DNA from: a virus
Strand: one strand, 5' to 3'
DNA length: 64,000 nucleotides
IMG/VR virus record: IMGVR_UViG_3300025674_000002
Made by a program: the position numbers and the translations under genes. Positions 33,425-59,075 of the stretch are shown here, one piece after another. Position 1 is the stretch's first letter. Each line of letters opens with the position of its first letter. Under the pieces are notes generated by a model, which was not told where the DNA came from, made no database searches, and was given only the letters and a program-made list of their open reading frames with translations.

Positions 33425-34057
33425 ATGTACGACAATCCAGACCATGACTGGGTAGCAGTGATTTATCCGCAGACGGGGGCAGTCCGTCTGCATCGGGACG
33501 TCGAGTCGGCGCAGCAAACGATTTCGTGGCGGTCCTGGCCGAACTACATCTTCAAGAACAAGAATGCCTTGAGAGCTTGGTCCCATATGGACCTCGAAGT
33601 TCTCTGGGTTCTTATCTATCAGTTTACGGAATGGCGCCACCCTCGCACGGCCCTCGGCCCCTTCCTCGAGACTGATCAGTACGCACCCGACTGCGGTACG
33701 GAAGAACTGCTGGATCGTATGTGGGATATGATCCAACGTCGGTGCGATCGAGTTCTGGGACCCATGGGTTCCGAGGTACGGCGTAAGACGTTTTACGAGA
33801 TCAACCTGGAATACCTGCGGCCGCTCGCAGAAAACATTGCTGTGTTTAAGGCAACGTTCAATCGGCAGGCGCGGACGATCCTCAGCGAACTCGTTAAACG
33901 TGGCAAGCGCTACTACGAGGAAGAGGAATTCCGGCTGATGATGAACGAGTTGGTGGCCACAAGAACACTGAAGACGAAGCAGGACCCCTTCCTCATCTTC
34001 CAGTACTACCGTCCGACCTTCATTGACTACGGTATCGTGTCTCGTGGTGGTCAGTAA
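33425..34057 (+). CDS. first-cistron family relative (winged-helix-like C-terminus)
   Basis: GAAGGAAACGACC ATG; C-terminus ..KQDPFLIFQYYRPTFIDYGIV echoes LFAYYRKKMEEFGL of the 13602/16461 pair. Confidence 0.5.
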   Translation: MYDNPDHDWVAVIYPQTGAVRLHRDVESAQQTISWRSWPNYIFKNKNALRAWSHMDLEVLWVLIYQFTEWRHPRTALGPFLETDQYAPDCGTEELLDRMWDMIQRRCDRVLGPMGSEVRRKTFYEINLEYLRPLAENIAVFKATFNRQARTILSELVKRGKRYYEEEEFRLMMNELVATRTLKTKQDPFLIFQYYRPTFIDYGIVSRGGQ

Positions 34058-36366
34058 TGGTCACCGCTGCAGATATCGAGAGCATTGCCAGGTCTCTAGG
34101 CGGTGGCAAAGAATCGAAGACCTCGACAGGTTGGAAGACTCTCTGCCCCGCTCATGTTGACTCTCAGCCATCGCTTGTCATCAGCCTCGGGGCTGGTGGC
34201 AAGATGCTATGTAAATGCCACAGCGGGTGTACATTCGATCAGGTTAAGGATGCTCTGAAGGATCAGAAACTCCTGCCTGATACGGAAAGAAAGAAGTCGG
34301 ACAAGGCGAAGAAGCAGGATACGGTTACCGTACTCATTCCTGTTCCTGAACACGCCCCTGATCCGCAAACCATCGTCAATCGTAAATTCGGCAAACCCAC
34401 CAAGGTGTGGGAATACCGGAACATATACAACGAACTGATCTTCTGCTGCGCCCGCTTCGATTACGTCGACGAAGAAGGCAAGCGCAAGAAAGAAATGTTT
34501 CCGTATTGCTACGTCAAGGATGACAAGGGCAACGAATACTGGAAACCCAAGGGCGCGCCTTATGACAAGGTGAAGCTCACCCTCTACAACGCGCATCTGC
34601 TCCCACTCAGACCCGATGATCCGGTGGTCATGGTCGAAGGAGAGAAGTGCGCTGACTACGGTAACAAGCACTTCGGAGATAAGTTCATCTTCATGTGCTG
34701 GTCAGGCGGTGGTAACGGCTTTGCGAAGTCGGACTTCACTGTGCTGAACGGCCGTACCGTTATCATGTGGCCCGATGCCGACGATCCCGGTATGAAGGCG
34801 ATGATCAATCTCGGCGCTCTCTTGACCCAAGAGCCTGGGACGATCACGAACGACGTTCGGTTGGTGACGTTGCCACAGGGACTCCCACGTGGATGGGACA
34901 TCGCTGACGAGATACCGGGTGGCATCCAACTCGATATCTTCGAGCGGATTATCAGCGCCCAGAAGTACGTCAATCCGACCGAGGAAATCATCAGCATCTT
35001 CAACAAGAAGTATGCTGTAATGGTAGAGCAGGGCAACGTCTCAGTCGTACAGTTCGACAAAGACGGTAACCTTCTCGATGGCGCGTTCAAGAAAACCGCG
35101 TTCTTCGACGCCATCAAAGAATATGCAGATGTGGTGGTTGATAAGAAGGAAATCCCCGCTCCGGAGTATTGGTTCAACCATCCTGACAGACGTCAGTACG
35201 ATGGCTATTGCTTCGACACCGAGAAAGGACGAGACGTCGAGACAGAAGATGGTCTGTTCCTGAATCGTTGGGCTGGGTACATGTACACAGCGACTGAGCG
35301 AGGCGATTGGTCGATCCTGCGCGACCACATTTATCGTAACCTGGCTCGAGATAATGAGGATCACGGGAACTGGATCATCGCTTGGTTTGCCCATCTGATG
35401 AAGTATCCCAGAGGTCGGCCCAACAAGAAGGTTCCAGGCACGTTCCGTCGTCTTGGTACTGCGATGGCCGTCATCGGCGATCAAGGCACAGGCAAGTCCG
35501 TGGTGGGAGAACACATGGGCAAGCTGTTGGGCAAGCATTATCTGTCCACGAGCGATGAACACACGATCTTTACCAATTTCAACTTCCACTTGCGAGACGT
35601 GGTTCTGTTGCAGGCGGATGAAGCGATCTTCACTGGCAACAAGAAAATCGCCAACAGACTCAAAGGCCTGGTCACGGGTGAGGAACTCCAAATCGAGAAC
35701 AAGGGCTTCAATATCATCACGTGTCCGAACATGGTTCACATGTACATGACGTCCAACGACGACCATGTGATCAACGCGTCGGGCAACGAACGTCGGTACG
35801 GCGTCTTCCTTGTCTCCCAAGAGAACCAGCGCGATCATGCCTTCTTCCAAGCGATGGAAGACGAACTCTTGGCTGGTGGTTACGAGCGTCTGCTGTACGA
35901 TCTGCTGAACTTCGACTTCAGTATCGCTGATCCAGCGAAGGTGCCGGAAACCGAAGCTCTGAGAACTCAGAAGGCAATGTCGCTTTCGCCGTTCAACTCC
36001 TTCCTGCAGTCGCTGCTGCTGAACGGTCGGTACGATGATGTGTCGCTTAACGGTGGCGGTGAGGTCTACACGATCTACGAGCTGTATCAGGCATACCTGA
36101 AGTACGTCAAGGATCGCGGAGACAGGTTCCCTGACGACATATCCACGTTCCAGATCAAGATGCAGGATGTGCTGCAGCATAGGACGTCGGTCGTACGCAA
36201 GCCGAGAGGGCTGAGCCTCAAGTTCGATGATCTGCGGTCATGCCGTATCGCCTTCTGCAACAAGCTGGGTCTCGACATCGATTGGTACGACGATCCTCTG
36301 CTGATCGAACATGACCGCCAAGAGCGTACTAGGGAGCCGAAGGCAGAGGAGGAAATTCCCTTCTAG
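34057..36366 (+). CDS. bifunctional DNA primase / SF3 (D5/P4-type) helicase
   Basis: Zn motif CPAHVDSQPS..CKCHSGC, TOPRIM VVMVEGEKCADY..WPDADDPG, Walker A VIGDQGTGKS, Walker B VLLQADEA; ends EEEIPF. Confidence 0.85.
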   Translation: MVTAADIESIARSLGGGKESKTSTGWKTLCPAHVDSQPSLVISLGAGGKMLCKCHSGCTFDQVKDALKDQKLLPDTERKKSDKAKKQDTVTVLIPVPEHAPDPQTIVNRKFGKPTKVWEYRNIYNELIFCCARFDYVDEEGKRKKEMFPYCYVKDDKGNEYWKPKGAPYDKVKLTLYNAHLLPLRPDDPVVMVEGEKCADYGNKHFGDKFIFMCWSGGGNGFAKSDFTVLNGRTVIMWPDADDPGMKAMINLGALLTQEPGTITNDVRLVTLPQGLPRGWDIADEIPGGIQLDIFERIISAQKYVNPTEEIISIFNKKYAVMVEQGNVSVVQFDKDGNLLDGAFKKTAFFDAIKEYADVVVDKKEIPAPEYWFNHPDRRQYDGYCFDTEKGRDVETEDGLFLNRWAGYMYTATERGDWSILRDHIYRNLARDNEDHGNWIIAWFAHLMKYPRGRPNKKVPGTFRRLGTAMAVIGDQGTGKSVVGEHMGKLLGKHYLSTSDEHTIFTNFNFHLRDVVLLQADEAIFTGNKKIANRLKGLVTGEELQIENKGFNIITCPNMVHMYMTSNDDHVINASGNERRYGVFLVSQENQRDHAFFQAMEDELLAGGYERLLYDLLNFDFSIADPAKVPETEALRTQKAMSLSPFNSFLQSLLLNGRYDDVSLNGGGEVYTIYELYQAYLKYVKDRGDRFPDDISTFQIKMQDVLQHRTSVVRKPRGLSLKFDDLRSCRIAFCNKLGLDIDWYDDPLLIEHDRQERTREPKAEEEIPF

Positions 36367-37575: not shown

Positions 37576-37989
37576 ATGATCACATCCACTTCGCGTAGGT
37601 GTTCACGTGAGGCCATTCGGAACCGCAGCACTTCTCCGAACTGGCTGGATCAATTCAAGGACGGAGCCGAGATCATTATCTGGCCTCCGTTAATCAATGA
37701 GGAAAACATGAGGCAAGTTTCTTTCTCGCTGGTGAAGGTCGAGGGCAACTTCGTCTACATCTCCGATGACGGACTCCCTGGGTTCGCGTCGGTCACAAAT
37801 CAGGCGGAGCACGTCGTCGAGACGCTCATCAGCCAGTGGGGTCCCGACAAGCGGTTCTTCTACCGTGACACGATGTTCGTGTGGGATGAGCTCTGTCACG
37901 ATGGTACGAAGTTTACGGACTTCAAACCCGTCGACAACCGCGAGCACGAGGATTTCCTCGGGCAGGTCATTCTGAAGGATGCCGGCTGA
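37576..37989 (+). CDS. hypothetical protein
   Basis: 137-aa ORF; alternative start ATG 37708 behind GAGGAAAAC. Confidence 0.5.
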   Translation: MITSTSRRCSREAIRNRSTSPNWLDQFKDGAEIIIWPPLINEENMRQVSFSLVKVEGNFVYISDDGLPGFASVTNQAEHVVETLISQWGPDKRFFYRDTMFVWDELCHDGTKFTDFKPVDNREHEDFLGQVILKDAG

Positions 37990-38579
37990 TGTTCAAGCAA
38001 CTCCAGGAGAAGATCGGAGACTGGGTCGCCGGCACGTTCGGCTACGAGGTACTCGCCGACAAGCAGGAACGCAATGCGCGTTTCTTCGAGGAAGTCGTCG
38101 AGCTCATGCAGGTTCGCGGCATGACCGTGGCCGAGATGGTCGCGATCATCCATGACAAGATGACGAAGCCGGTCGGCGAGCTCGATCAGGAAGTCGGTGG
38201 TGTGTTGATCACGTTCCTCGCTCTGTGCGAGTCGGGCGACGTCGATGTCGATACCGCTTACGCGAACGAATGGAACCGCGTCCAGCCGATGGAAGTGCGG
38301 AACCGGATTGCCGCGAAATCGGCGCTCAAGCTTCCCAACTACGAAGCGCCGGAAGAAGACGGCAAGATCGGCGTCATCGAGTTCGAGTACGTCAACCACG
38401 AAAACAAGCGCGGGAAGCGCAGGATCGTCCCGCTCTATCCCTGGTACGGCAACAGCGAATGGTACCCGAAGTACCGTCATGCTGAGTGGTTCATCCGGGG
38501 TCTCGACATCGAGAAAAACGTGGTGCGGGACTTCATGATCGACCGCATGGCGTTCGTCGACCACATGGGTGCCCGCTAA
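37989..38579 (+). CDS. MazG-like NTP pyrophosphohydrolase domain fused to a WYL-like domain
   Basis: N-half ERNARFFEEVVELMQ..ELDQEVGGVLITFLALCESGDVDVD (MazG EExxE / E..D pattern); C-half IEFEYVNHENKRGKRRIVPLYPW..AEWFIRGLDIEKNVVRDFMIDRM (WYL-like). Confidence 0.5.
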   Translation: MFKQLQEKIGDWVAGTFGYEVLADKQERNARFFEEVVELMQVRGMTVAEMVAIIHDKMTKPVGELDQEVGGVLITFLALCESGDVDVDTAYANEWNRVQPMEVRNRIAAKSALKLPNYEAPEEDGKIGVIEFEYVNHENKRGKRRIVPLYPWYGNSEWYPKYRHAEWFIRGLDIEKNVVRDFMIDRMAFVDHMGAR

Positions 38580-40048: not shown

Positions 40049-41035
40049 TTGGCAAACGCTCGTGGAAAGAGCATCGACAATACCCACTTGTCGGTAGACA
40101 CCGCCCTCGCTCGGGGCTTCATTCACCGTGACTACGTCGCACACTGTCTGCGCTGGACGTACGTCATGAAGGAGATGGCGCGCAAGCAGGTCTACAAGAC
40201 TTCGCGCATCCTGGATATCGGCTGCGGCGTCGACGTCCCGCTCGCCAAAACTCTCTACTCGTCCCGCTACATCGTCGAACACTACATCGGCATGGACTGG
40301 AACCACGGTGCTAAGCTGGACATCACTCCATTTCACACTGGTAAGTTTCCTGTGGATGTGTTCGGTCGCGTCGACTTTGCGTCGAACCAGGTCACGATCG
40401 AGGAAACGGCCGACGGTCGCATGGGCATCAACATCGTCGGCGAGAACGCCGATGGCAACAAGCCCAACGAAGACTTCTTCTATCTGCCCAACGTCATCAC
40501 CTGCTTTGAGATGCTCGAGCACATCGAGCCGGCGCACGTGCGTGCCGTTCTTACCAAGGTTCGTACCATCATGAACCTGGCGGCGGCGGAGGGGCAGGAC
40601 CCCATCTTCTATATGTCGACGCCCAACTACGACTCCAATGTCGGTCACGCCGCCAACCACGTGAACGAGATGGATCACAACGCCCTGGGCTGGCTGATCG
40701 AGGAATGCGGTCTCACGATCAAGCGCGAGATCGGCACGTTCGCTTCGCAGCGTGACTACGTGCACAAGCTGTACGCCGATTTCCCGGGCGCCGACAAGGT
40801 CTACCAGGCCCTCGCCGACGTCTACGACTCCAACTACCTCGCGACGATTTTCGCTCCGCTGTATCCGGCCGACGCGAGGAACTGCATGTGGACCCTCGGG
40901 CCCACGAAGGAAGGGTACGAGCGGAAATACCCGATGCTGCAGACCGACGGCGCGCCGTGGTCTTCCAGCGAGAACTGGCGTCACATGTTCGAGGGCTTCG
41001 CTGACGCCTACAATCCGGCCACCGGCGTCGTCTGA
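40049..41035 (+). CDS. class I SAM-dependent methyltransferase
   Basis: AAGGAGAACAGAA TTG; motif I RILDIGCGVDVP, later VITCFEMLEHIEP; no DPPY/PCQ-type DNA-MTase motif seen. Confidence 0.7.
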   Translation: MANARGKSIDNTHLSVDTALARGFIHRDYVAHCLRWTYVMKEMARKQVYKTSRILDIGCGVDVPLAKTLYSSRYIVEHYIGMDWNHGAKLDITPFHTGKFPVDVFGRVDFASNQVTIEETADGRMGINIVGENADGNKPNEDFFYLPNVITCFEMLEHIEPAHVRAVLTKVRTIMNLAAAEGQDPIFYMSTPNYDSNVGHAANHVNEMDHNALGWLIEECGLTIKREIGTFASQRDYVHKLYADFPGADKVYQALADVYDSNYLATIFAPLYPADARNCMWTLGPTKEGYERKYPMLQTDGAPWSSSENWRHMFEGFADAYNPATGVV

Positions 41036-41149
41036 TGGCGAAGATCGCAGCGTTGAGGAACAGCTCCATGCTGTCCTCTTCGTGGTTCACAACCGGTATC
41101 GGCCGTTATACATATAGGCAGCTGCTGATACCTTTCCAATACAGGTAGG

Positions 41150-41755
41150 ATGATGGAATACTACTTCCATAATTGCATCGCCGCGTTCCACGAGAAGTTC
41201 GGCATCGGCTACAGCGGCGAGGTCGAACGCCATCTCGACGCCGAACTCAGGGACTTCCGCATCAAGTTCCTGAACGAGGAATTCGACGAGTACGTCGAAG
41301 CATATTCCAAGCGCGACCTCGAGAAGCAGTTCGACGGCCTGATCGACCTCATGTACGTAACGGTCGGCACGCTCTACCTTCATGGTCAGGCGTATAGAGA
41401 GCGCAGCATCGTGACGGGATACTTCGGTCCTCCTCGCGAGCTGGACGACACGCTGGCCCAGTATCACATGCGCCAGATGGCTCTGTACATCAAGAAGTAC
41501 GAGTCGGCGACGGATGCTGGGTATCTCGACGGCAAGCTCGACGCGCTCCAGGAGCTCGGTCAGTGCGTGCTGGAAACGGCGGCAGCGCACGGGTTCGCGT
41601 TCAACCTCGGCTGGTTGCGCGTCCACTCCGCCAACATGAAGAAGGTGCGCGCCGAGCGTGACGACACGCGTGGCCACAGGGACACCCAATTCGACATCGT
41701 GAAGCCGGAAGGCTGGGTGCCAGCGAAGCTGACCGACCTCGTCTTTCCAAACTAG
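41150..41755 (+). CDS. all-alpha NTP pyrophosphohydrolase (MazG/HisE-like)
   Basis: RDFRIKFLNEEFDEYVEA..FDGLIDLMYVTVGT..VHSANMKK pattern. Confidence 0.55.
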   Translation: MMEYYFHNCIAAFHEKFGIGYSGEVERHLDAELRDFRIKFLNEEFDEYVEAYSKRDLEKQFDGLIDLMYVTVGTLYLHGQAYRERSIVTGYFGPPRELDDTLAQYHMRQMALYIKKYESATDAGYLDGKLDALQELGQCVLETAAAHGFAFNLGWLRVHSANMKKVRAERDDTRGHRDTQFDIVKPEGWVPAKLTDLVFPN

Positions 41756-41763
41756 GAGCTGTC

Positions 41764-42570
41764 ATGACACGCCATACGATCTTCGTCTTGGAAGGCCCCG
41801 ATGGGGTCGGCAAGACGACACTCGGCAAGGCGCTCGTCGAACGGCTCAATGGTCGGTATCTGCATCTGACCTATCGGTACCCGGACAATATGTTCGGGTA
41901 CCACCGAGCCGCCATCGAGTGGTGCCTCAAGAAGGCCAAGAACCAGCACGTGATCCTGGATCGCTGGTGGCCGAGCGAAGTCGCGTATGCTAAGGCGTAT
42001 CGCGGCGGAACGAAGTGCCCGTACATTTCGGTCCTTCTGGATACGATGGCACTGACCCATGATATCGTGTACATCTGGTGTATGCCACATGACCGCGAGC
42101 GTGTGGGTACAAACTTCGCCCAGCTCAAGGATAAACGCGAAGAAATGTACAGCGAAGGAATGCTTCGTGTGTACGATGCCTTCGACGTACTGATGCGGAA
42201 GATGGACAGGGGCTCCCGTCTCCACTTCCGCTATGACGTATTCAGCGTCGTGGACGGGGCGATCAGCATGACTCGGTGGATCGAATGGATGATCAATTCG
42301 GTCGCCCTTCGACTCAATGTGTGCTCGAAGCAGGAATATCCGAGCTGCCTCGTAGGAAACAGGTGGAACCCGGATGAGGGTTTCATCATCGACGAGCCGT
42401 TGTCGAAGCGCCCTGTGCTGTCCGAGGCGACTCCCAAATCGTTGAAGTTCGCGGAGTACGCGCACCTCAGCAGACCCAACTATGTGGCTGTGAATATCCA
42501 TCATGTGGCAAGCCCGGAATTCCGGGAATACCGCCATATGCGGCCCGAAATCGAGTGGAGGTTCTTTTGA
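41764..42570 (+). CDS. dNMP (thymidylate-type) kinase domain with C-terminal extension of about 110 aa
   Basis: IFVLEGPDGVGKTTLGKAL P-loop and ILDRWWPSEVAYA (DR..S..AY) as in thymidylate kinases. Confidence 0.65.
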   Translation: MTRHTIFVLEGPDGVGKTTLGKALVERLNGRYLHLTYRYPDNMFGYHRAAIEWCLKKAKNQHVILDRWWPSEVAYAKAYRGGTKCPYISVLLDTMALTHDIVYIWCMPHDRERVGTNFAQLKDKREEMYSEGMLRVYDAFDVLMRKMDRGSRLHFRYDVFSVVDGAISMTRWIEWMINSVALRLNVCSKQEYPSCLVGNRWNPDEGFIIDEPLSKRPVLSEATPKSLKFAEYAHLSRPNYVAVNIHHVASPEFREYRHMRPEIEWRFF

Positions 42571-43361
42571 CCCAATTCTTTGACTGCGCCAACAATGCCT
42601 GGGAACGCCTTCTTCAGGACGTTTACCAGGACGGCGAAATCAGCAGTCCTCGGGGCATGGAGACGAAGGAAATTCTGGATTACACGATGCGTTTCGATAT
42701 GACGTATCCGGTGATCACACATCCGGCCCGTAACCTGGGCTACAAGTTCATGGCGGCCGAAGCGGCTTGGATTCTGTCGGGCGACAACAGGGTCGAGACC
42801 ATCCTTCCCTACGCCAAGCGGATCAAGGAATTCTCCGACGATGGTATCCGCTTCTTCGGCGCGTACGGCCCCCGGATCGTGGATCAACTCTCGTACGTCG
42901 TCGACACGCTGGTCAAGGACCCCGACTCGCGGCAGGCGGTGATGACGATCTGGCGGCCCAATCCGCGTATAACGAAGGACGTGCCGTGTACCGTGTCGGT
43001 GCAGTGGGTGATCCGGGAAGGCAAGCTCCACTGTCTCGACAAGATGCGTTCATCTGACGCCTGGCTCGGGTGGCCCTACGACGTATTCAACTTCTCAATG
43101 CTGTCGGCGATGATCGCGGTCGAGTACTGGATGCGTACTTCCGAGTACATCGAGCCGGGGACGTTCAGCCTCAGTGCGACATCCCAGCATATCTACGAGC
43201 GCAACTACGAGAACGTCAAGGACGTCCTGTACCGGCGGCTTTCTCCCTCGGACCGCGGCCCCCAGCTGGTGGTTCAGCGGTTCGAGCACAGCTCGGACAT
43301 TGTCTCGGCGCTGTGGGAATACGCCGTCACCGGCGACCTGCACAAGCAGGAAATGATCTGA
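42567..43361 (+). CDS. thymidylate-synthase-family pyrimidine C5 transferase, predicted dCMP-specific (hydroxymethylase or methylase)
   Basis: DPDSRQAVMTIW, VPCTVSVQW (catalytic Cys), MRSSDA, GWPYDVFN, SQHIY align without gaps to ThyA blocks; Asp at the Asn177-equivalent position; TTG 42567 behind GGAGG (ORF opens at GTG 42555). Confidence 0.7.
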   Translation: MTQFFDCANNAWERLLQDVYQDGEISSPRGMETKEILDYTMRFDMTYPVITHPARNLGYKFMAAEAAWILSGDNRVETILPYAKRIKEFSDDGIRFFGAYGPRIVDQLSYVVDTLVKDPDSRQAVMTIWRPNPRITKDVPCTVSVQWVIREGKLHCLDKMRSSDAWLGWPYDVFNFSMLSAMIAVEYWMRTSEYIEPGTFSLSATSQHIYERNYENVKDVLYRRLSPSDRGPQLVVQRFEHSSDIVSALWEYAVTGDLHKQEMI

Positions 43362-43798
43362 TGCGCCCGTCATCTGACGAATTCTTTCTTCAGATGGCGG
43401 AACTGACGGCGACGCGTGGCACCTGCCCGCGTCGCCAAGTCGGTTGCGTTATCATCAACCACCATCGCCACGTCATCGCGACGGGCTACAACGGCACGCC
43501 GCGTGGGTTCGCTCACTGTACTCACGAGCCGTGTGCCGGTGCGCACTATCCGTCCGGGCAGGGATTGGAGAAGTGCGAAGCAGTTCATGCTGAGGCCAAT
43601 GCTCTTCTTCAGTGCAAGGATGTGGAAGAAATCCACTCCCTGTTCTGTACCGCTTCTCCGTGCATCCACTGCACGAAGCTCATCCTGAATACGTCGTGCA
43701 AACGCATCGTATTCCGTCATGAATATCCGCACAGCGACTCCGAGAACTTGTGGCGTCGCGCCGGCAGAGAGTGGGTTCATCTTGGCGAAAAGAAGTAA
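43361..43798 (+). CDS. dCMP deaminase
   Basis: CEAVHAEANAL (HAE zinc site) and SPCIHCTKLI (PCxxC); TGATG overlap with the upstream gene. Confidence 0.85.
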   Translation: MRPSSDEFFLQMAELTATRGTCPRRQVGCVIINHHRHVIATGYNGTPRGFAHCTHEPCAGAHYPSGQGLEKCEAVHAEANALLQCKDVEEIHSLFCTASPCIHCTKLILNTSCKRIVFRHEYPHSDSENLWRRAGREWVHLGEKK

Positions 43799-45752
43799 AT
43801 CCAAGAAGCTCAGCAGCGAACTCCAACTCGGGCTGTTTGCTCCGGCATCTGATTGGACGCCGCCCGAGTCCCTTCCTGATCTGTCCGCTGCCAAGGCGAT
43901 CGGTATCGACGTCGAGTCACGCGATCCGTATCTTAATGAAGAAGGCCCAGGCTTCATTCGAGGCGATGCTCGAGTTGTAGGCATCAGTCTCGCTGTTGAA
44001 GATGGGCCGAAAATGTATCTCCCGTTCGGTCACCTTGACGGCGGGAACATGGACAAAGACAAGGTCGTAGACTACGTCAAGGTGCAGCTTAGCCGTCCGC
44101 ACCAGACGAAGGCCGGCGCCAACCTGATGTACGAGCTCGAGGCACTTGACTCGCTTGGCATTCCTATTGTTGGGCCGCTGTGGGATATTCAGAATGCAGA
44201 GCCGCTCCTGGACGAGGAGAAGGCTGACGGGTATTCGCTCGAGGTTCTATCTCGCGACTACCTCGGTCAAGGCAAGACGGAGAGGCTGCTTCGTGAGGCA
44301 GCGGACGCGTCCGGTATCGATCCCAAGTCGGAAATGTGGAAGCTCCACAGCAAGTACGTCGGCCCATACGCCGAGGACGACGCGCTCAATCCGATCCTGA
44401 TCATGAAGCAGCAGCATGCTCGGCTCGAGAAAGAGAAGCTGCTTGAGGTCATGAAGCTCGAGTCAGACCTGCAGCCGTGTCTCTGGAAGATGCGCAAGCG
44501 CGGAGTTCGGATCGATCTCGATGCTGCGGAGGCACTCTCGAGGGATATCCAAGAGCAGGAAAACCAGCTCATTCGGATGATGAAGAACCAGCTTGGCTTC
44601 TTCGTCGATCCATGGTCTCCTGTTAGCTTGCGTAAAGTTTTCGAGGCTCTCGGTCTCGAACATGCCATCAATAAAACTGCCAAGGGCAACGACTCCTTCA
44701 CAAACGAATACCTGCTCCAGCTGGGAGAGCAGTATCAGGAGCTCGGTCCGGTTCTCGAATTCCGGCAGATGAACAAGATGCGACGTGACTTCATCGAGGG
44801 TCTTATCCTCGCGAAGAACGTCAACGGTCGCCTGCATCCGAATTGGCACCAGCTTCGTACGGATGATGAGGACAAGCAGAATGGAACCAAGACTGGACGA
44901 ATTGCTTCTAGTAAGGTTAACCTCACGCAGATTCCTACGCGGTCTCCTAAATGGGGTAAGCCAATACGGCGTCTGTTCGTCGCAGACTATGGCGGACGTT
45001 GGTGCAAGCTTGACTACTCTCAGCAGGAACCAAGATGGTCCCTCCACTACGCGTTCATTAAGAACTATCCGGGGGCAGCTGAAGCTCGTCGCAAGTATCT
45101 AGAGAATCCCGACATCGATTACCACGAGATGGTACAGTTCATGATTCGCGATATGGTGGGCATGGACATCGGTCGCGGCAAGGCGAAGGGCATCAATCTC
45201 GGTTCTGCATACGGAATGGGTAAGTGGAAGCTAGCTCAGCAGCTCGGTGTGGATGTTGAAGAAGCTACCAAGCTCTTGAAAGCGTATCACCAAGGCGTGC
45301 CATACGTCAAGAAGCTGGCTGACTACTGCATGGAGCTAGCGCAGGCCAACGGGTTCATCAGGACGTATTCAGGCAGGAAACGTCGGTTCAACAGCTGGGA
45401 ACCTGCGCGGTGGGAAGACCGTGATGGTTACCCGATGAAAGATTATGAGGCAGCCGTAGATCGTTGGGGCAACGTGACGCGGGCATTAATCCACAAAGCC
45501 ATGAACGCGAAAATCCAGGGTTCTGCTGCTGATCAGATTAAGATGGCTATTGTGGAGATGGATCGGCAGGGAATTCTTCCTCACATTCAGGTTTACGATG
45601 AGATCAACACCACCATCTACGACGACGAAACGGCTTTTCAAATGCAGAAAATCCTCGAAACTATATGCCCGCTTGAAATCCCGTTTTCAGCAAAGCCTGA
45701 CGTCGGTACGTCGTGGGGCGACGTGGTGGAACTCGAAAGGGTAGCAGCATGA
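43719..45752 (+). CDS. family A DNA polymerase with 3'-5' exonuclease domain
   Basis: Exo I IGIDVES; motif A LDYSQQEPR; motif B RGKAKGINLGSAYGMG; motif C HIQVYDEIN; true start may be TTG 43782. Confidence 0.9.
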   Translation: MNIRTATPRTCGVAPAESGFILAKRSKSKKLSSELQLGLFAPASDWTPPESLPDLSAAKAIGIDVESRDPYLNEEGPGFIRGDARVVGISLAVEDGPKMYLPFGHLDGGNMDKDKVVDYVKVQLSRPHQTKAGANLMYELEALDSLGIPIVGPLWDIQNAEPLLDEEKADGYSLEVLSRDYLGQGKTERLLREAADASGIDPKSEMWKLHSKYVGPYAEDDALNPILIMKQQHARLEKEKLLEVMKLESDLQPCLWKMRKRGVRIDLDAAEALSRDIQEQENQLIRMMKNQLGFFVDPWSPVSLRKVFEALGLEHAINKTAKGNDSFTNEYLLQLGEQYQELGPVLEFRQMNKMRRDFIEGLILAKNVNGRLHPNWHQLRTDDEDKQNGTKTGRIASSKVNLTQIPTRSPKWGKPIRRLFVADYGGRWCKLDYSQQEPRWSLHYAFIKNYPGAAEARRKYLENPDIDYHEMVQFMIRDMVGMDIGRGKAKGINLGSAYGMGKWKLAQQLGVDVEEATKLLKAYHQGVPYVKKLADYCMELAQANGFIRTYSGRKRRFNSWEPARWEDRDGYPMKDYEAAVDRWGNVTRALIHKAMNAKIQGSAADQIKMAIVEMDRQGILPHIQVYDEINTTIYDDETAFQMQKILETICPLEIPFSAKPDVGTSWGDVVELERVAA

Positions 45753-46247: not shown

Positions 46248-46832
46248 ATGTCTGATCCAAACGACGTTTTCGCGCTGGCAGCCGCGGAAGAAGAAGCGCC
46301 TGTCACCGACGATAGTTTGTCGGAAATCGCAGAGCTGGCTCGGCAGCAGCTGGCCCTCGACACCGAGATCGCCAACCTCGAGGCGACTCTCAAGGAGAAG
46401 AAGGAGGAATTCCGTCGCATTTCCGAGCAGTCCCTGCCCGAGGCCCTTGACTCGGTCGGTATGTCCGAGTTCACGCTCGACACCGGCTTCAAGATCAAGG
46501 TGTCGACGTTCTATAACGCTTCCATCCCGCCGGATCGGAAGGAAGAAGCGTACCAGTGGCTCGACGACAACGGGCATGGGGGCATGATCAAGACCGAAGT
46601 GAAGACGAACTTCGGCCGTGGTGAACTGGAGGCAGCGAAAGCTCTCATTGCGGAAATCAACGAGAACCACCCCGAAATCGCCATGGACCTCAACCAGACG
46701 GTCCACTGGCAGACACTCCGTGCCTGGGTCAAAGAGCAGGTCGAAGGGGGTCACTCGCTCCCGATCGACATGTTTGGCGTCTTCGTGGGCCGGAAGACCA
46801 AGATCACGCTCGCGGCTTCCAAAACGCGTTAA
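46248..46832 (+). CDS. hypothetical protein with N-terminal coiled coil (recombination/replication accessory candidate)
   Basis: 194-aa ORF preceding the SSB-like gene. Confidence 0.5.
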   Translation: MSDPNDVFALAAAEEEAPVTDDSLSEIAELARQQLALDTEIANLEATLKEKKEEFRRISEQSLPEALDSVGMSEFTLDTGFKIKVSTFYNASIPPDRKEEAYQWLDDNGHGGMIKTEVKTNFGRGELEAAKALIAEINENHPEIAMDLNQTVHWQTLRAWVKEQVEGGHSLPIDMFGVFVGRKTKITLAASKTR

Positions 46833-46908
46833 CAAGCCGAAGCGAGATAAGTCGGCGAAACTCGGCGACTTTTACAACCTGTACAGGATCAACTGGAGAA
46901 TACAGCAA

Positions 46909-47778
46909 ATGGCTACGAAAACCAAGGCTGAAGTAGCGACAGCCGAAGCTGAAAATACTGCCGTCTCCGCCTTCAATGAAGACCTCCTGGCTATGGCCAT
47001 GCAGGACTCCGGCCAGGGCACCAACGAACTCGGCATGGATGATGTCGCGGTTCCCTACCTCTATCTCCTGCAGAGCGGTTCTCCGCAGGTGAACCCGGAC
47101 AGCGACGCCTACATCGAGGGCGCGCTTCCCGGCATGTTCTACAACAACGTCGAAGAAGAAGTCTATGAAGGTCGGAACGTCGGTCTGCGGGTGATCCCGT
47201 GCGCTTACGAGCGGCGGTACGTCGAATGGGTCGACCGTGACTCGGGCGGTGGTTACGTCCGTGATCACGACATCAATTCCAACATCATGTCGCTGACCAA
47301 GCCCGACGAGAAGGGCCGGCCCCATCTCGAGAACGGCAACATCATCGTCGAGACGGCCTACCACTACGTCTACTTCCAGCACCCGGAGACGGGGACCTGG
47401 GGTCAGATCATCATCCCGATGAAGTCCACCCAGCTCAAGAAGAGCCGCCGGTGGAACAAGTCGCTGATGTCGACGCTGATCCCCGGTACGCAGAAGACGG
47501 CGCCGCGGTGGCTGTTCCCCTACCAGCTCAAGTCGGTGAAGGAGCAGAAGGGCAACGACACCTATTCCAACGTCGATCTCGAACGGATCGGCGAGCCGGT
47601 CTCGATGGAAATGTACATGCAGTGCAAGGCCTTCGCCGACCTGTTCGATCGCGGACTGGTCGTGAAGGGCGATGAAACCGCTGTCGCCGGCGCCGCCGGT
47701 GATGCGGGTGATGGTGGTCAGTCGAAGAACGTCAAGGGCCCGGACTACGCGGGCGGCGACGACGAAATCCCGTTCTGA
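46909..47778 (+). CDS. ssDNA-binding/annealing protein candidate with SSB-like acidic C-terminal tip
   Basis: GGAGAATACAGCAA ATG; ends ..GPDYAGGDDEIPF, like the DDDIPF tip of bacterial SSB. Confidence 0.45.
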   Translation: MATKTKAEVATAEAENTAVSAFNEDLLAMAMQDSGQGTNELGMDDVAVPYLYLLQSGSPQVNPDSDAYIEGALPGMFYNNVEEEVYEGRNVGLRVIPCAYERRYVEWVDRDSGGGYVRDHDINSNIMSLTKPDEKGRPHLENGNIIVETAYHYVYFQHPETGTWGQIIIPMKSTQLKKSRRWNKSLMSTLIPGTQKTAPRWLFPYQLKSVKEQKGNDTYSNVDLERIGEPVSMEMYMQCKAFADLFDRGLVVKGDETAVAGAAGDAGDGGQSKNVKGPDYAGGDDEIPF

Positions 47779-47937: not shown

Positions 47938-49401
47938 GTGGCTAAATACTCCTTTAGGCTGGAACCACTTGATCATCAGCGCGAGTACTATCGTGAGTGC
48001 CGCGACTTCGATGATTGGGCTCTGTTCTGGGCGCCGGGGCTCGGCAAATCCAAAGCTGCCATCGACAACATTTCCTACCTGTTCGTCACGAAGAAGATCG
48101 ACTGCGTGGTCTACATCGCCAAGAAAGGCGAGTACGGCAACTTCATCGAGGACCAGGTTCCCCAGCATCTGTGGGACGGTATCGCGTGGCTCGGCGAAGA
48201 TTTCAAGTCGGTTCGCAATAAGGAGGAGCAATGGCTTCTCGACAACATCCTGAAGGCGAAGAAGGAACCAACCCTCAGAATTCTCTCCGTCAATGTCGAG
48301 AGTATCCCATACCAGGGCGCTGAGGTCATCAAGAAGTTCATGGCATCCGCTGAACACGGAGTCATGTTCATTACCGATGAAGCTACGTGCATCAAGAACC
48401 CGAAGGCCAAGCGGTCCAAGAAGGTTTACGCTCTATCGCAGATGGCGACCTATCGTCGTATCATGACGGGTACGCCGATCACACGTTCTCCTACCGATAT
48501 CTGGGGAGAGTGCCAGGCTCTGAAGCCGGGTCTGCTCGGCCACAACTCCTTCTACAGCTTCAAGGGTGCATACTGCATCGAGGAGAAGCAGTACATCGTT
48601 CGCGCCGGCAAGCGGATTTCGTTCGACGTTATCACCGGCTACAAGAACCTCGACAAGCTCAAGCATCGTATTCGTGGGTTCTCGTCGGTTCGTACCGCAG
48701 AGGAATGTCTCGATCTTCCGCCCAAGGTTTATCGCCGCATCCGGGTGCCGATGACGGCGGAGCAGCAGAAAGCGTATTCCGAGATGGCGGAGTTCGCTAT
48801 GACGCAGTTCGGCGACGGGCAGATCAAGGACGTGACCTCGGTCATGGGTCTGTTTATGTCCCTGCATCAGATCGCGATTGGCCAGCTCAAGATGGGCGAA
48901 GGTCTTCCGCCGAAGCGGCTGGAGTCGAACCGCTTCGACTACATGTTCGAGAAGTACGAAGACCTCGATGATAAGGCAATCATCTGGTGCCACTATCGCG
49001 ACTCGCTCGATCGTCTCGTCGCAGAGGCGGAGCAGAGGTTCGGAGCAGGTTGCGTCGCCCGGTATTACGGCGGCGTCGATGATGAGGAGCGTCAGTGGGG
49101 CCTGAAGGAATTCAAGAACCCGGATAGCCAAGTTCGCTTCTTCATCTCAAACCCACAGTCCGGCGGTTACGGTCTCACCATGACCATAGCTCGGATTACT
49201 GAGTATTTCGCGAACAGCCACAACCTGGAGCATCGCCTTCAGTCGGAGGATCGCAACATGCGTATCGGACAGACGGGTTCTGTTCTGTACAACGACTACT
49301 ACTGTGCTGGAACCGTCGAGGAACGTATCATCGACTGTCTGAGACTTAAGAAGGTTATCGGGCACGAAGTGATGGGAACTCGCATCACCGATTGGATTTG
49401 A
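47938..49401 (+). CDS. SNF2-family helicase
   Basis: APGLGKSKAAI (motif I), DEATCIKN (motif II), SGGYGLT (motif V), QSEDRNMRIGQTG (motif VI); GTG start. Confidence 0.85.
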   Translation: MAKYSFRLEPLDHQREYYRECRDFDDWALFWAPGLGKSKAAIDNISYLFVTKKIDCVVYIAKKGEYGNFIEDQVPQHLWDGIAWLGEDFKSVRNKEEQWLLDNILKAKKEPTLRILSVNVESIPYQGAEVIKKFMASAEHGVMFITDEATCIKNPKAKRSKKVYALSQMATYRRIMTGTPITRSPTDIWGECQALKPGLLGHNSFYSFKGAYCIEEKQYIVRAGKRISFDVITGYKNLDKLKHRIRGFSSVRTAEECLDLPPKVYRRIRVPMTAEQQKAYSEMAEFAMTQFGDGQIKDVTSVMGLFMSLHQIAIGQLKMGEGLPPKRLESNRFDYMFEKYEDLDDKAIIWCHYRDSLDRLVAEAEQRFGAGCVARYYGGVDDEERQWGLKEFKNPDSQVRFFISNPQSGGYGLTMTIARITEYFANSHNLEHRLQSEDRNMRIGQTGSVLYNDYYCAGTVEERIIDCLRLKKVIGHEVMGTRITDWI

Positions 49402-49404
49402 GAA

Positions 49405-50283
49405 ATGGCCGACTTCAAACCGCTGCTTGCATCTGAAGCCAAGATGGATACCATGACGTATCCCAAGAGTGGCTCATTCAAGATAGACGGCATCCGCGCA
49501 CACATCATGTCGGACGACGTGTACTCGCGCAATCTGAAGCTGATCCCCAACGCGTTCATTCGCGGGAAACTTCGCGAGACTGGTTGTAAGAACCTCGACG
49601 GCGAGATCGTGACGTACACCAATGGGAAGATGGACAACTTCAACACTGTCCAATCCCGGGTCATGTCGCGGTCGGGGATGCCGGACTTCCAGCTCCACGT
49701 TTTTGACGACTTCACTCACCCGAACTGGTCGTTCGACGATCGGTATTACATGGCTCAGGAGAAGGTCCATGCGGCCAACTCCAAGTACCTTCATATAGTG
49801 GAGCAACGTCTTCTGTGTACGGAAGAAGAAGTTACCTCGATGGAAGAAGAAGCCATCGCCGGGGGCTGGGAAGGTCTGATGCTTCGTGATCCCGGTGGTC
49901 ACTACAAGTACGGCCGGTCCACGGCTCGCGAAGGAATTCTCCTGAAGGTGAAGCGGTTCACCGATACCGAAGGTACGGTCGTCGACTTCAAGGAGGAAAT
50001 GGAGAACACGAACGAGCAGGAAGAAGATTACCTCGGGCATATGCGCCGGAGCAGCCACAAGGATGGCATGGTTCCCAAGGGACGGCTCGGCGCATTCGAG
50101 GTCGAATGGAATGGCGTGACCTTTGATCTGGGTTCCGGCATGAACTTCGGCCATCGCACCGAGTATTGGAACCGCAGGGAGGAGCTGCGGGGACACCCTG
50201 TAAAGTTCAAGTACTTTGGCGTGGGGCCCAACGGCAAGCCGCGCCATCCGATCTTCCTCGGGCTACGGCCTGAGGGAGCGTAA
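49405..50283 (+). CDS. ATP-dependent DNA ligase
   Basis: motif I FKIDGIRAH (KxDGxR), motif IV WEGLMLRDP, motif V ILLKVKRF. Confidence 0.85.
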   Translation: MADFKPLLASEAKMDTMTYPKSGSFKIDGIRAHIMSDDVYSRNLKLIPNAFIRGKLRETGCKNLDGEIVTYTNGKMDNFNTVQSRVMSRSGMPDFQLHVFDDFTHPNWSFDDRYYMAQEKVHAANSKYLHIVEQRLLCTEEEVTSMEEEAIAGGWEGLMLRDPGGHYKYGRSTAREGILLKVKRFTDTEGTVVDFKEEMENTNEQEEDYLGHMRRSSHKDGMVPKGRLGAFEVEWNGVTFDLGSGMNFGHRTEYWNRREELRGHPVKFKYFGVGPNGKPRHPIFLGLRPEGA

Positions 50284-51075: not shown

Positions 51076-51364
51076 AAGCCTCGATCTCCTTTTCCATAAT
51101 CTGCTGCCTTGCCTCCTGTTCTTCGTTCGCAGCTTTCAACGCCCGTTCGAACGTATCCGCTGCGTCACGGGCCGCGGTTGCCTGCCGCTTCATTTCCCGC
51201 AACTCTGCGTCCTTGGCGTGAAGACGTACCTCGGTCACGTAACCGGAGCGTGCTTCACTTGCGACTGAAGGGTCGTCGACCCACGCGTCGTAGGTCATGA
51301 CGATGGCAAGCGTGGCCAAGTGATATGGCCACGCCTTCAGATAGCCGAGGAGAAACCCCAGCAT
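51002..51364 (-). CDS. i-spanin
   Basis: MLGFLLGYLKAWPYHLATLAIVM anchor then coiled coil; ATG overlaps the endolysin stop (TAATG). Confidence 0.65.
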   Translation of the reverse strand: MLGFLLGYLKAWPYHLATLAIVMTYDAWVDDPSVASEARSGYVTEVRLHAKDAELREMKRQATAARDAADTFERALKAANEEQEARQQIMEKEIEAYVKELKDAGRACPLSDSDIEWLRK

Positions 51365-52089
51365 TAGAGACCACACGCCTGGAAGTGCATCCAGTCGAAG
51401 TCCCGCTCCCGGCCCAGGGATACCAGGCCGTACCGCTCGACGATTTCCCAGAAGGGAATGTATTCGGGCCGAGCGAACCGCGCCGTGACGTGAGTCTCGC
51501 GGAGCAGGTTCTTCTGTGGCCAGAGGTCGACTGCGATACCGAACGCATGGGTCGAGGGCTTGGAGCCGCCGCGCATGGGCCGGTTGTTGTAACATCCACC
51601 GAAAATGTCGAGGCCGAGTTCACGGTACCGGGCGGGCCCATAATAGGTAACCGCCTCCTTGAACATTTCGGTGAACGTGTCCTGGACCAGGATGTGGCAG
51701 CTGAACCGGTTCACCGTCTGGGTCATATCCCAGGCGATGCGGAACGGAATGGGAAGACGACACTTCCCGGCCGTCGCTGCCGGACTTCCCGGTACGCCGA
51801 ACACCTTCTGCACGTCGCGATACGGCGGGAACGCGGTCTTGACCTTGATTGGAGCCGTATCCTTGGACCGGTCCGGGATACCTTCGTCGTTGCGTATGAT
51901 CTTTCCACCATACAGAACGCCGCGGGTGTCCTGGTCGATGACTCCGGTAACCGGAATGAAGTTCGCCTTCTGGAACTCCTTCAGGGCTCCCGCAGTGCGA
52001 GGACCCCAGAAGCCATCGTTCGGTCCAGCATCATAGCCGTACTTGTTGAGCTGCTGCTGCAAGCTCCGTACTGCTGGATCAGCTGGCAT
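51364..52089 (-). CDS. endolysin: PG_binding_1 domain + M15 metallopeptidase
   Basis: LQQQLNKYGYDAGPNDGFWGPRTAGALKEFQ; SKPSTHAFGIAVDL (SxHxxGxAxD) and DWMHFQ. Confidence 0.8.
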   Translation of the reverse strand: MPADPAVRSLQQQLNKYGYDAGPNDGFWGPRTAGALKEFQKANFIPVTGVIDQDTRGVLYGGKIIRNDEGIPDRSKDTAPIKVKTAFPPYRDVQKVFGVPGSPAATAGKCRLPIPFRIAWDMTQTVNRFSCHILVQDTFTEMFKEAVTYYGPARYRELGLDIFGGCYNNRPMRGGSKPSTHAFGIAVDLWPQKNLLRETHVTARFARPEYIPFWEIVERYGLVSLGRERDFDWMHFQACGL

Positions 52090-57251: not shown

Positions 57252-58472
57252 TTAGGCACACCCCAATCCGCCTTCGAGCTTCGTGAACGTCACCTCATTG
57301 AGGCACGGCAGGTAGTCGCATTCCGGATAATAATCACCGCAGTCATTGATGTATCCGGCTTCGCGGTTCGGAGTTACCTGCTCCATACGAGCCGACGTGT
57401 TGACGGCGCCGCCCATGACATTGGCGACAATGAGTTCGATCTGCTGCATCCGGATCGGCTGCGACGGAGCGATGGTCTTCATGAAAGCGATGATGTCGTT
57501 CTCGATCTGGTTCTGCTGACCAGCAGTCGGACAGTCCTCGATATCGACGCGAATGTTGACCATGTCAGCGATAGGCTGAACGATCCGACCGCATACTCCG
57601 ATTTCCACGAGACCCTCGCCGTATCCAGCGTGTTCGCCAAACACCCACTGGTTCAGCTGAGCGACAACCGACTCCGGCGGAATACCGCAAGGGAAGGAAT
57701 TGTCGAACATCACGTAGAATTCCATATTGTCGCCGCACGAAACGCATTTGCATTCAGGATCGAGGCAGTCGTCACCACAGCCACAGCATGACCCAGCACG
57801 GTCGAGGACTCGCGTGGCGCATGGCCATTCGAGGATTTTGTTCTTGAGCCAGGTCGCGGTAGCACGCGGCTGATACGTCTTCCGATCCAGATAGCGACGA
57901 CGGAAAGCCTCGCAATCTTCAGCCGGTTCGCCGCCGCAGAGCATACCGCCGCAGACCTCGACCGTACGGTCCACGCCAGCGATAGCGCTAGCCAACGTGC
58001 CGGTTGTAACTACGCCATCGCTGTTGCCTTCAACGCCGCCCTCCACAGCGCGGACGTTGATGATAATCTCACCAGCCTGGGGCATGGTCGTGGGAACCAC
58101 GCCAATCGACCGATAGTTCCGCGTTCCAAGAATGACCTCGATAGTGGAAGGAAGAACCGAGCCGGCGGTACCGAGCAGTTTGACGTAACCCTCAGCGCGT
58201 TTGGATGTGCGAGGGTAGATGCCTTCTGCTGCCGCCAACTTGTACAGGTTGTCGCAGCAAGCGTAGCGCGGATCACGCTCTTTCCACTGCTGCTCGGTGA
58301 TGGCATAGAATTCTTCTACCATCGCGGCGTTCAAAGCCACGACGTACCATTCGTTGGACTCCGGAATGATCGGAGAACCGTTGAGCACCGTCGTCGAGAA
58401 CATGTCCCGCTGGCGGTTGAAGATATTCTGGAGGCTGGGACGTTCCAAGCTACAAGTCATTTCCACACCCAA
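57252..58472 (-). CDS. baseplate J / Mu gp47-like protein
   Basis: 406 aa in the gp46-gp47-gp48 order; carries a CCGCGDDCLDPECKCVSCGDN insert. Confidence 0.6.
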   Translation of the reverse strand: MGVEMTCSLERPSLQNIFNRQRDMFSTTVLNGSPIIPESNEWYVVALNAAMVEEFYAITEQQWKERDPRYACCDNLYKLAAAEGIYPRTSKRAEGYVKLLGTAGSVLPSTIEVILGTRNYRSIGVVPTTMPQAGEIIINVRAVEGGVEGNSDGVVTTGTLASAIAGVDRTVEVCGGMLCGGEPAEDCEAFRRRYLDRKTYQPRATATWLKNKILEWPCATRVLDRAGSCCGCGDDCLDPECKCVSCGDNMEFYVMFDNSFPCGIPPESVVAQLNQWVFGEHAGYGEGLVEIGVCGRIVQPIADMVNIRVDIEDCPTAGQQNQIENDIIAFMKTIAPSQPIRMQQIELIVANVMGGAVNTSARMEQVTPNREAGYINDCGDYYPECDYLPCLNEVTFTKLEGGLGCA

Positions 58473-59074: not shown

Positions 59075-59075
59075 G

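Follow-up and report, generated by a model that had tools for sequence, protein, structure and literature searches.

The DNA analysed here is a 64,000-nt stretch of the IMG/VR virus record IMGVR_UViG_3300025674_000002 (the window), which is a tailed-phage genome. On its + strand, at 40049–45752, lie six close-packed and co-oriented open reading frames (ORFs). In order, they encode a class-I S-adenosylmethionine (SAM)-dependent methyltransferase, a nucleoside triphosphate (NTP) pyrophosphohydrolase of the PRA-PH/MazG type, a thymidylate-kinase-like kinase, a thymidylate synthase (TS) homologue, a deaminase of the deoxycytidine monophosphate (dCMP) deaminase family, and a family-A DNA polymerase. 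The set had been proposed in an earlier note made from the sequence, and all six ORFs are present with Pfam families that match their labels (Table 1). It is very likely that this operon is a module of some kind for replacing cytosine by a base altered at C5. We consider it probable that in this phage cytosine is replaced, before replication, by 5-hydroxymethylcytosine (5hmC). Within that scheme the methyltransferase might yield a further and undescribed base, which is a much more tentative proposal.

The combination of domains is not new. It has been tied statistically to metavirome contigs with modified cytosine in the MetaGPA studies (Yang et al., eLife 2021, PMC8670742; bioRxiv 10.1101/2024.12.05.627091), where PRA-PH is among the most enriched domains and co-localises with TS and deaminase on such contigs, and DNA_pol_A is among the top domains co-localised with deaminases. 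The window has the gene arrangement by which those studies define the neighbourhood: a TS homologue with Asp at the position of ThyA Asn177, no more than 3 kb from a dCMP_cyt_deam_1 gene, with PRA-PH and DNA_pol_A co-localised (41150–45752). The likeness extends to the MafB19 match of the deaminase, the exonuclease domain of the polymerase, and an OB_2-type ligase nearby. These papers thus already describe the gene neighbourhood, and the window is one more genome with a recognised module, so the core finding will not surprise a specialist. They differ in making no mention of a Methyltransf_23 gene, the follow-up being concerned with carbamoyltransferase-linked 5hmC and with deaminases selective for 5-methylcytosine (5mC).

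Two things are added here. The residue signature of the TS homologue gives a specific and testable call on the product, hydroxymethyl over methyl, for a clade in which Stenotrophomonas phage AXL3 and Pseudoxanthomonas phage PW916 carry other annotations; and the methyltransferase co-occurs with the TS homologue in every methyltransferase locus examined, which points to a possible extra chemical step. Replacing cytosine protects a phage from most restriction enzymes and many CRISPR nucleases, and enzymes from such phages, the 5hmC carbamoyltransferase and 5mC-selective deaminases among them, have become tools for sequencing and epigenetics.

The thymidylate synthase homologue and its active site

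The most informative protein is the TS homologue. It scores 104.6 bits against the Pfam TS family (cut-off 24.3), its AlphaFold2 model has a predicted local distance difference test (pLDDT) score of 94.9, and Foldseek matches the model to 396 TS-family entries in the PDB at E ≤ 0.001. The top matches are structures of the CMP hydroxymethylase MilA from mildiomycin synthesis, with template modelling (TM) scores of 0.75–0.81 and 31–35 % identity, and they rank above all ThyA entries. The TS-family catalytic residues E69, Y104, R165, H212 and Y214, equivalent to ThyA Glu58, Tyr94, Arg166, His207 and Tyr209, are invariant, as is C145. Translation could begin at GTG 42555 or at 42567; the latter, which is the start given in the earlier note, is used by the database protein P0121 (264 aa, 100 % identical), which comes from a 67,416-bp JGI metagenome contig.

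From the catalytic Cys through the base-recognition loop the protein aligns to E. coli ThyA without gaps, and the paired residues are Cys145/C146, Arg165/R166 (at +20 from the Cys), Asp168/D169 (+23) and Asp176/N177 (+31). The earlier note had reported this alignment, with Asp at +31 both here and in the dCMP hydroxymethylase of phage T4, and our alignment and motif table agree with it on every position: D176 pairs with D179 of T4 gp42, and also with D186 of MilA. The TS fold in which this Asp takes the place of Asn177 is predicted with high confidence, and a cytosine hydroxymethylase is its closest structural match. Replacement of Asn177 by Asp switches a TS-fold enzyme from dUMP to dCMP (PMC13326640, PMC8670742, PMC5175136).

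The residues around the catalytic Cys bear on the product. Three positions before it there is Asp142 in the window enzyme, Leu143 in ThyA and Asp145 in T4 gp42; one position after it there is Thr146, which is Thr also in T4 gp42 and MilA, His147 in ThyA, and Pro in the enzymes of Xanthomonas phage Xp12 and Pseudomonas phage PaMx74, whose cytosine is completely replaced by 5mC. The motif ending at Cys+1 is accordingly D-V-P-C-T in the window, D-F-M-C-T in T4 gp42, D-V-A-C-T in MilA and N-V-P-C-P in Xp12/PaMx74. The Cys-3 position is Leu in methyl-transferring synthases and Asp or Glu in hydroxymethylases, and a change from L143 to D or E tracks with hydroxymethyl products (PMC13326640). In T4 gp42 the attack of water on the exocyclic methylene depends on activation by Asp145, hydroxymethylation is lost in D145N, and an acidic residue at Cys-3 has been proposed as a signature of hydroxymethylases (PMC6400193). 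The active site thus shares with T4 gp42 the signature D-x-x-C-T ... D (+31). Taken together, the published residue rules predict that the enzyme converts dCMP to 5-hydroxymethyl-dCMP, rather than to the 5-methyl or 5-hydroxy nucleotide.

The signature is well conserved. D176, C145, D168 and D142 are invariant across 57 aligned homologues, and the full D/T/D/D set is retained in 109 of the 115 closest database homologues that could be scored, five more having Ser for Thr at Cys+1; it is therefore not a matter of chance.

Sequence scores point in the same direction. The TS homologue scores 96 bits with the dUMP hydroxymethylase gp29 of phage SPO1, 92 with MilA (the top PDB match), 80 with ThyA, 77 with the Xp12 enzyme and 46 with T4 gp42. 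MilA is also the nearest solved structure, and shares Asp at Cys-3, Thr at Cys+1 and Asp at the 177 position with the window enzyme. It differs, as does BcmA of the bacimethrin pathway, in a Lys/Ala pair and a preference for ribonucleotides, and in serving bacterial antibiotic synthesis instead of phage DNA replication. Mutagenesis of MilA has shown that Lys133'/Ala176 favours ribonucleotides and that deoxyribose-specific enzymes carry Arg/Ser (PMC5175136). The window enzyme has the deoxyribose-type pair, Arg126 and Ser166 aligning with MilA K133 and A176, and on this ground CMP was rejected as the substrate.

Other assignments were considered and rejected. The 5-hydroxy-dCMP synthases of the RB69 gp48 / DLP3 gp80 type have Asn at the position of ThyA 169 (PMC13326640), and the retained, invariant Asp168 excludes the window enzyme from that group. 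As a canonical ThyA it fails on Asn177, on His147, on a hydrophobic residue at 143 and on the C-terminal tail, where its ending '...GDLHKQEMI' does not align with '...IKAPVAI' of ThyA. It also fails on the NCBIfam ThyA equivalogs: its scores of 81–87 bits lie below every cut-off (108–327 bits or more), the best being 86.6 against 327, with TIGR03284 at 81.2 against 108.35. A carboxymethylcytosine system (CmoX/CmoA) does not fit either; that system consists of a DNA C5-methyltransferase homologue and CmoA, with no TS homologue.

The neighbouring enzymes and the proposed pathway

The earlier note described the gene set as T4-like. The division of labour does resemble that of T4 gp56, gp42, gp1, cd and gp43, where deoxycytidine triphosphate (dCTP) is removed, a TS-fold enzyme hydroxymethylates dCMP, and the phage brings a dedicated kinase, its own polymerase and a dCMP deaminase. 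Common descent is not evident: T4 gp42 is only 26 % identical to the TS homologue across 115 residues, and BLASTP finds no similarity between the window NTPase and the gp56 dCTPase. In addition, the kinase is thymidylate-kinase-like, the polymerase belongs to family A (that of T4 to family B), there are no glucosyltransferases in the window, and T4 has no counterpart of the SAM methyltransferase. On the sequences compared, the resemblance to T4 appears to be one of functional logic, not of descent beyond the TS superfamily.

The last five genes are separated by an 8-nt gap or overlap by 1–16 nt (4 or 16 nt for kinase and TS, depending on the TS start, and 1 nt for TS and deaminase), and no terminator-like sites were found on the + strand inside the operon.

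The NTPase matches PHROG 671 'nucleotide pyrophosphohydrolase' (2.6e-22), and its translation has the acidic motifs 'NEEFDEYVE' and 'FDGLIDLMYV'. Its putative role is to hydrolyse dCTP (possibly also dUTP) to the monophosphate and pyrophosphate, which would clear the canonical nucleotide, keep unmodified cytosine out of the DNA and supply dCMP to the hydroxymethylase. A PDB sequence search gave only an insignificant match to DR2231; with no homology to gp56 found, the role as a dCTPase is therefore drawn by analogy. A second MazG-type NTP pyrophosphohydrolase may be encoded at 37989–38579 (+), 1.5 kb 5' of the operon: the N-terminal half of this 196-aa protein has a resemblance ('FFEEVVELMQ' ... 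'ELDQEVGGVLITFLALCES'), weakly supported by the PDB nucleotide pyrophosphohydrolase 5ie9 at E=1.2, with no Pfam match and with PHROGs of unknown function.

The kinase gene begins 8 nt past the NTPase gene and its end overlaps the TS start. Pfam Thymidylate_kin covers residues 9–39 only, which is the N-terminal P-loop, and PHROG 761 'thymidylate kinase' covers residues 2–157 (3.2e-14); the score is far below the NCBIfam cut-off for dTMP kinase. The motifs 'GPDGVGKTT' (P-loop) and 'LDRW' are seen in the translation. The extra C-terminal domain that had been noted does exist as an extension, with no annotation attached to it beyond the end of the PHROG match, and AXL3 gp29 (28 % identity) aligns only to about residues 5–198. 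Orthologous kinases are 203–327 aa long in related loci, and 187 aa and about 340 aa in further relatives. By analogy with T4, the enzyme would convert the modified dCMP to the diphosphate, and a host nucleoside diphosphate kinase would complete the triphosphate.

In the proposed pathway, the TS homologue would add the one-carbon unit of methylene-tetrahydrofolate to C5 of dCMP, with Asp176 selecting cytosine. Asp142 would let water, instead of hydride, resolve the exocyclic methylene intermediate to give 5-hydroxymethyl-dCMP, and this signature has been validated experimentally in other enzymes.

The ATG of the deaminase gene shares one base with the stop codon of the TS gene. The translated protein shows the zinc motifs HAE and PCxxC, and its best PDB match is the dCMP deaminase of cyanophage S-TIM5 (4p9c, 1.2e-17). 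Identity is 50 % with AXL3 gp27 and 29–32 % with the deaminases of Xp12 and PaMx74. Its assignment as a dCMP deaminase stands at the level of the family; the substrate could be dCMP, as for T4 cd, or a 5-modified dCTP, as in Xp12. Selectivity for 5mC and 5hmC is reported to be polyphyletic within the family (bioRxiv 10.1101/2024.12.05.627091). If the product of the TS homologue is the hydroxymethyl nucleotide, the simplest role would be like that of T4 cd, supplying dUMP to the host thymidylate synthase; the deaminase might also act as a drain on cytosine nucleotides. In a methyl scheme it would convert 5-methyl-dCTP to dTTP, as in Xp12.

The polymerase may start at ATG 43719, as had been assumed, overlapping the deaminase by 80 nt, or at TTG 43782. 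It falls below the NCBIfam cut-offs for both PolI and DpoZ_1. It is co-inherited with the module (see below) and is presumed to be the enzyme that incorporates the modified triphosphate, which would replace the cytosines of the virion DNA; the restriction resistance of AXL3 DNA is in support of this. As a separate observation, on the NCBIfam model for the aminoadenine-incorporating DpoZ (cut-off 500) the polymerase reaches 240 bits, about equal to its score on generic PolI, a hint that it is one of the phage PolA enzymes often paired with non-canonical dNTP pools. No PurZ, DatZ or MazZ was seen.

Further along the + strand, the ligase is 37.5 % identical to that of AXL3, and both of its domains are strongly enriched on modified-cytosine contigs (PMC8670742). 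It is a possible accessory of the module, with a weaker association than the operon genes.

Relatives, the methyltransferase and alternative explanations

When the whole region was compared with 50,697 phage records by megablast, no close relative emerged at the DNA level, and relatives were found at the protein level only. The methyltransferase, NTPase, kinase, TS homologue and deaminase occur in the same order in AXL3 and PW916, in two Manatee Spring phage genomes and in three metagenome contigs. The module extends to at least 245 IMG/VR loci in addition to the cultured AXL3 and PW916. These two are siphoviruses, with structural genes unrelated to those of the window. Beyond the five module proteins (28–50 % identity), AXL3 has only PolA and the ligase in common with the window, seven proteins in all. 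The module is thus passed, as one piece, among phage backbones that are otherwise unrelated.

AXL3 is of particular value in that its DNA has been digested. Only 2 of 37 restriction enzymes cut it, both at sites made of A and T alone (AATT, TTAA), and the 35 that fail include KpnI and an AhdI isoschizomer (PMC7504290). The genome has 13 KpnI and 14 AhdI/Eam1105I sites. KpnI and AhdI fully digest the 5mC DNA of Xp12, but not the 5hmC DNA of T4gt. AXL3 also encodes ThyX, which would be redundant if dTTP came from deamination of 5-methyl-dCTP. By analogy with these DNAs, the restriction data and ThyX argue against plain 5mC in the AXL3 clade and are compatible with 5hmC or something bulkier. A search of the literature gave no follow-up on the modification of AXL3 DNA.

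AXL3 genes 27–31 (MT536174, locus L013) are annotated in print as an ordinary thymidylate pathway from dCMP to dTDP (PMC7504290), and the PW916 enzyme (L001) is annotated as a deoxyuridylate hydroxymethyltransferase. In both enzymes the ThyA-177 and Cys-3 positions are occupied by Asp, and each annotation therefore probably names the wrong substrate. TS homologues of the same clade with the D/T/D/D signature are also found, with a small kinase and with neither methyltransferase nor deaminase, in T7-like genomes of the pelagiphage type, namely Pelagibacter phage HTVC200P (L003) and loci L161, L163 and L170; judged by this signature, abundant marine podoviruses may carry modified cytosine too.

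The first gene of the operon was described in the earlier note as a SAM methyltransferase of a non-DNA type, and this is borne out. Methyltransf_23 is its sole Pfam match and NCBIfam gives only a sub-threshold match to UbiG. There is no PHROG match and no PDB sequence match, and a profile search gave only hits at E>0.06 (LCMT, PRMT, UbiG). The AlphaFold2 model (pLDDT 91) was compared with the PDB and BFVD using Foldseek, and its neighbours, at TM of about 0.4, are generic class-I small-molecule O- and N-methyltransferases, cap-methyltransferases and Hen1. A DNA (cytosine-5, N4 or N6) methyltransferase was rejected on the grounds that no such family or fold is matched. The SAM motif I 'LDIGCG' and the motif 'VLEH' are invariant in 56 homologues, and 812 full-length homologues at about 50 % identity lie mostly on contigs the size of phage genomes. 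The protein thus represents an orphan phage family, large and well conserved, outside the DNA-methyltransferase families.

Its linkage to the TS homologue was counted from both sides, in loci that are related to each other, so that the counts are not independent events. Among IMG/VR loci that bear the methyltransferase and have at least 4 kb of downstream sequence (n=63), the TS homologue is present in all 63, the kinase in 58, the NTPase in 56, PolA (after the deaminase) in 50 and the deaminase in 48. Among loci found with the TS profile (n=62), the methyltransferase is present in 50 and absent from 12, and the kinase and PolA (again after the deaminase) are present in 60 each. Versions with no methyltransferase include a contig that keeps the NTPase, kinase, TS homologue and deaminase, and T7-like genomes of the pelagiphage type, with TS homologue and kinase only. 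In myo-, sipho- and podovirus genomes with little else in common, the methyltransferase is the first gene of the operon. The methyltransferase is never found without the TS homologue, and the TS module is at times found without the methyltransferase, an asymmetry such as a tailoring enzyme acting downstream would be expected to show. We found no description of this linkage in the literature searched; it is new here and suggests a tailoring step not previously described.

From this linkage, the likeliest role of the methyltransferase is a further modification of the hydroxymethylated nucleotide or base, and the suggestion of the earlier note that it decorates the base gains real support, while still being an inference. 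The bacimethrin pathway offers a parallel: its hydroxymethylase is paired with the SAM methyltransferase BcmC, whose substrate is the hydroxymethylcytosine base. In chemical terms, the simplest guess is that the 5-hydroxymethyl group is O-methylated, and the product would then be a base not known in DNA. We regard as doubtful, on present evidence, the full proposal that 5-hydroxymethyl-dCMP is made and then converted, as nucleotide or in DNA, to an undescribed base such as 5-methoxymethylcytosine or N4-methylated 5hmC. Besides the linkage, it draws on the intact SAM motifs, on weak structural neighbours that act on small molecules and not on DNA, and on the window having no glycosyl- or carbamoyltransferase that could fill a tailoring role. 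AXL3 DNA also resists XbaI, which partly cuts T4gt 5hmC DNA, though AXL3 has one XbaI site only. Set against this, no structural or sequence match connects the enzyme to a nucleotide substrate, no phage DNA with a methoxymethyl pyrimidine came up in a full-text literature search, and the enzyme could act on RNA, protein or a host factor and merely be inherited in the same block. If it were true, this widespread module would represent a new class of cytosine hypermodification that uses neither a glycosyl- nor a carbamoyltransferase.

A rival to 5hmC is 5mC, made as in Xp12 and PaMx74 by reductive methylation of dCMP, with a 5-methyl-dCTP-selective deaminase providing dTTP and no need for ThyA or ThyX. 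We judge it improbable. The Xp12/PaMx74 synthases have Asp at the 177 position and are directly followed by a deaminase, as in the window, and in those phages too the modified dCMP is made before replication; it was this arrangement that led to the 5mC-selective deaminases. Of seven deaminase-linked synthase homologues predicted to make 5-methyl-dCMP, five were confirmed to do so (bioRxiv 10.1101/2024.12.05.627091). Within the window no ThyA, ThyX, dihydrofolate reductase (DHFR), glycosyltransferase or carbamoyltransferase was found using Pfam on about 60 ORFs and PHROGs on hypothetical early genes; the parent contig extends about 3.4 kb beyond the window. A tblastn search of the window with AXL3 ThyX likewise gave no match. 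This agrees with the earlier note on ThyA, ThyX and glycosyltransferase, and the lack of a ThyA or ThyX of its own fits the Xp12 route to dTTP. The active site holds the main sequence-level ground for caution: the proposed T4 hydroxymethylase signature also includes Ser or Thr two residues ahead of the catalytic-base Tyr (S-N-Y in T4, S94-x-Y96; T-A-Y in MilA), and the window enzyme has G102-A103-Y104 there, with G102 invariant in its clade. Moreover, the substrates of the NTPase and kinase rest on analogy, and the AXL3 restriction data come from a relative whose module proteins are 28–50 % identical to those of the window and, taken alone, do not distinguish modified C from modified G.

Several features nevertheless separate the window from the 5mC phages. 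At Cys-3 and Cys+1 the Xp12/PaMx74 synthases have Asn and Pro, not Asp and Thr, and they retain a ThyA-like C-terminus ('...PEVIE' / '...PEVVE') which is missing here. They score 70–77 bits against the TS homologue (27–31 % identity), no closer than ThyA, and MilA and SPO1 gp29 are closer. Their gene cluster is also different, comprising a haloacid dehalogenase (HAD) hydrolase, TS, deaminase and DHFR, with the DHFR gene adjoining that of the deaminase one gene from the synthase, and with no PRA-PH, kinase or methyltransferase. No HAD hydrolase is present among the Pfam-scanned ORFs of the window, and a DHFR probe had no match in any of 160 related loci. Finally, AXL3 has the same module, together with a ThyX and DNA uncut by two enzymes that cut 5mC DNA. 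We therefore prefer 5hmC. The broader expectation of the earlier note, that the virion DNA carries 5hmC, 5mC or a derivative made before replication, is supported, with the active-site signature favouring hydroxymethyl over methyl.

A third explanation is that the operon merely supplies thymidylate to canonical DNA, the deaminase making dUMP, the synthase dTMP and the kinase dTDP. This is how the homologous AXL3 genes were annotated, and all four enzymes come from families that work in this way in cells. We consider it very improbable. The uracil determinant Asn177 is replaced by an invariant Asp, and Leu143 and His147 are replaced too; the scores against the NCBIfam ThyA models are well short of their cut-offs. 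The separate ThyX of AXL3, the refractory nature of its DNA at all G/C-containing sites tried, and the statistical link of the domain combination to modified-cytosine contigs all argue against it.

Other features of the window

The remaining features are collected in Table 1. Those for which no score is given were located in the same Pfam scan.

Table 1. Position and annotation of the operon genes and other features of the window.
Feature	Position	Strand	Evidence
Class-I SAM-dependent methyltransferase, 328 aa	40049..41035	+	Pfam Methyltransf_23 7.9e-08; first operon gene
All-alpha PRA-PH/MazG-type NTP pyrophosphohydrolase, 201 aa	41150..41755	+	Pfam PRA-PH 2.7e-09; PHROG 671
Thymidylate-kinase-like P-loop dNMP kinase, 268 aa	41764..42570	+	Pfam Thymidylate_kin 3.2e-07; PHROG 761
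TS-fold enzyme, predicted deoxycytidylate 5-hydroxymethyltransferase, 268 aa (264 from 42567)	42555..43361	+	Pfam Thymidylat_synt PF00303 6.7e-30
dCMP-deaminase-family zinc deaminase, 145 aa	43361..43798	+	Pfam dCMP_cyt_deam_1 2e-20; MafB19-deam 5e-10
Family-A DNA polymerase with 3'-5' exonuclease domain	43719..45752	+	Pfam DNA_pol_A 8.4e-53; exonuclease domain match weak
ATP-dependent DNA ligase with OB_2 domain	49405..50283	+	Pfam DNA_ligase_A_M, DNA_ligase_OB_2
Portal	7272-8573	-	Pfam scan
Large terminase	8570-9802	-	Pfam scan
DUF5906/VapE-like primase-helicase	34057-36366	+	Pfam scan
Pam3 gp33- and gp34-like proteins	46248-47778	+	gp33-like = DUF7307
SNF2 helicase and ATP-dependent ligase	47938-50283	+	Pfam scan
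Endolysin	51364-52089	-	Pfam scan
Mu-like baseplate	57252-62127	-	Pfam scan

The polymerase is followed by a small PD-(D/E)XK/VRR-NUC-like gene and then by the Pam3 gp33-like and gp34-like genes. The same order recurs in several unrelated metagenome contigs that bear the module (loci L008, L009 and L010), and the conserved block therefore reaches past the six operon genes.

Near the large terminase, an HNH endonuclease gene (12516–13013, +) adjoins a small-terminase-like gene (11826–12380, -), a layout typical of HNH-assisted cos packaging. Between 20800 and 33400, on both strands, there are about 20 small ORFs with high third-position GC and no Pfam match, the sole PHROG match being phrog_24023 (unknown function); these are presumably early genes.

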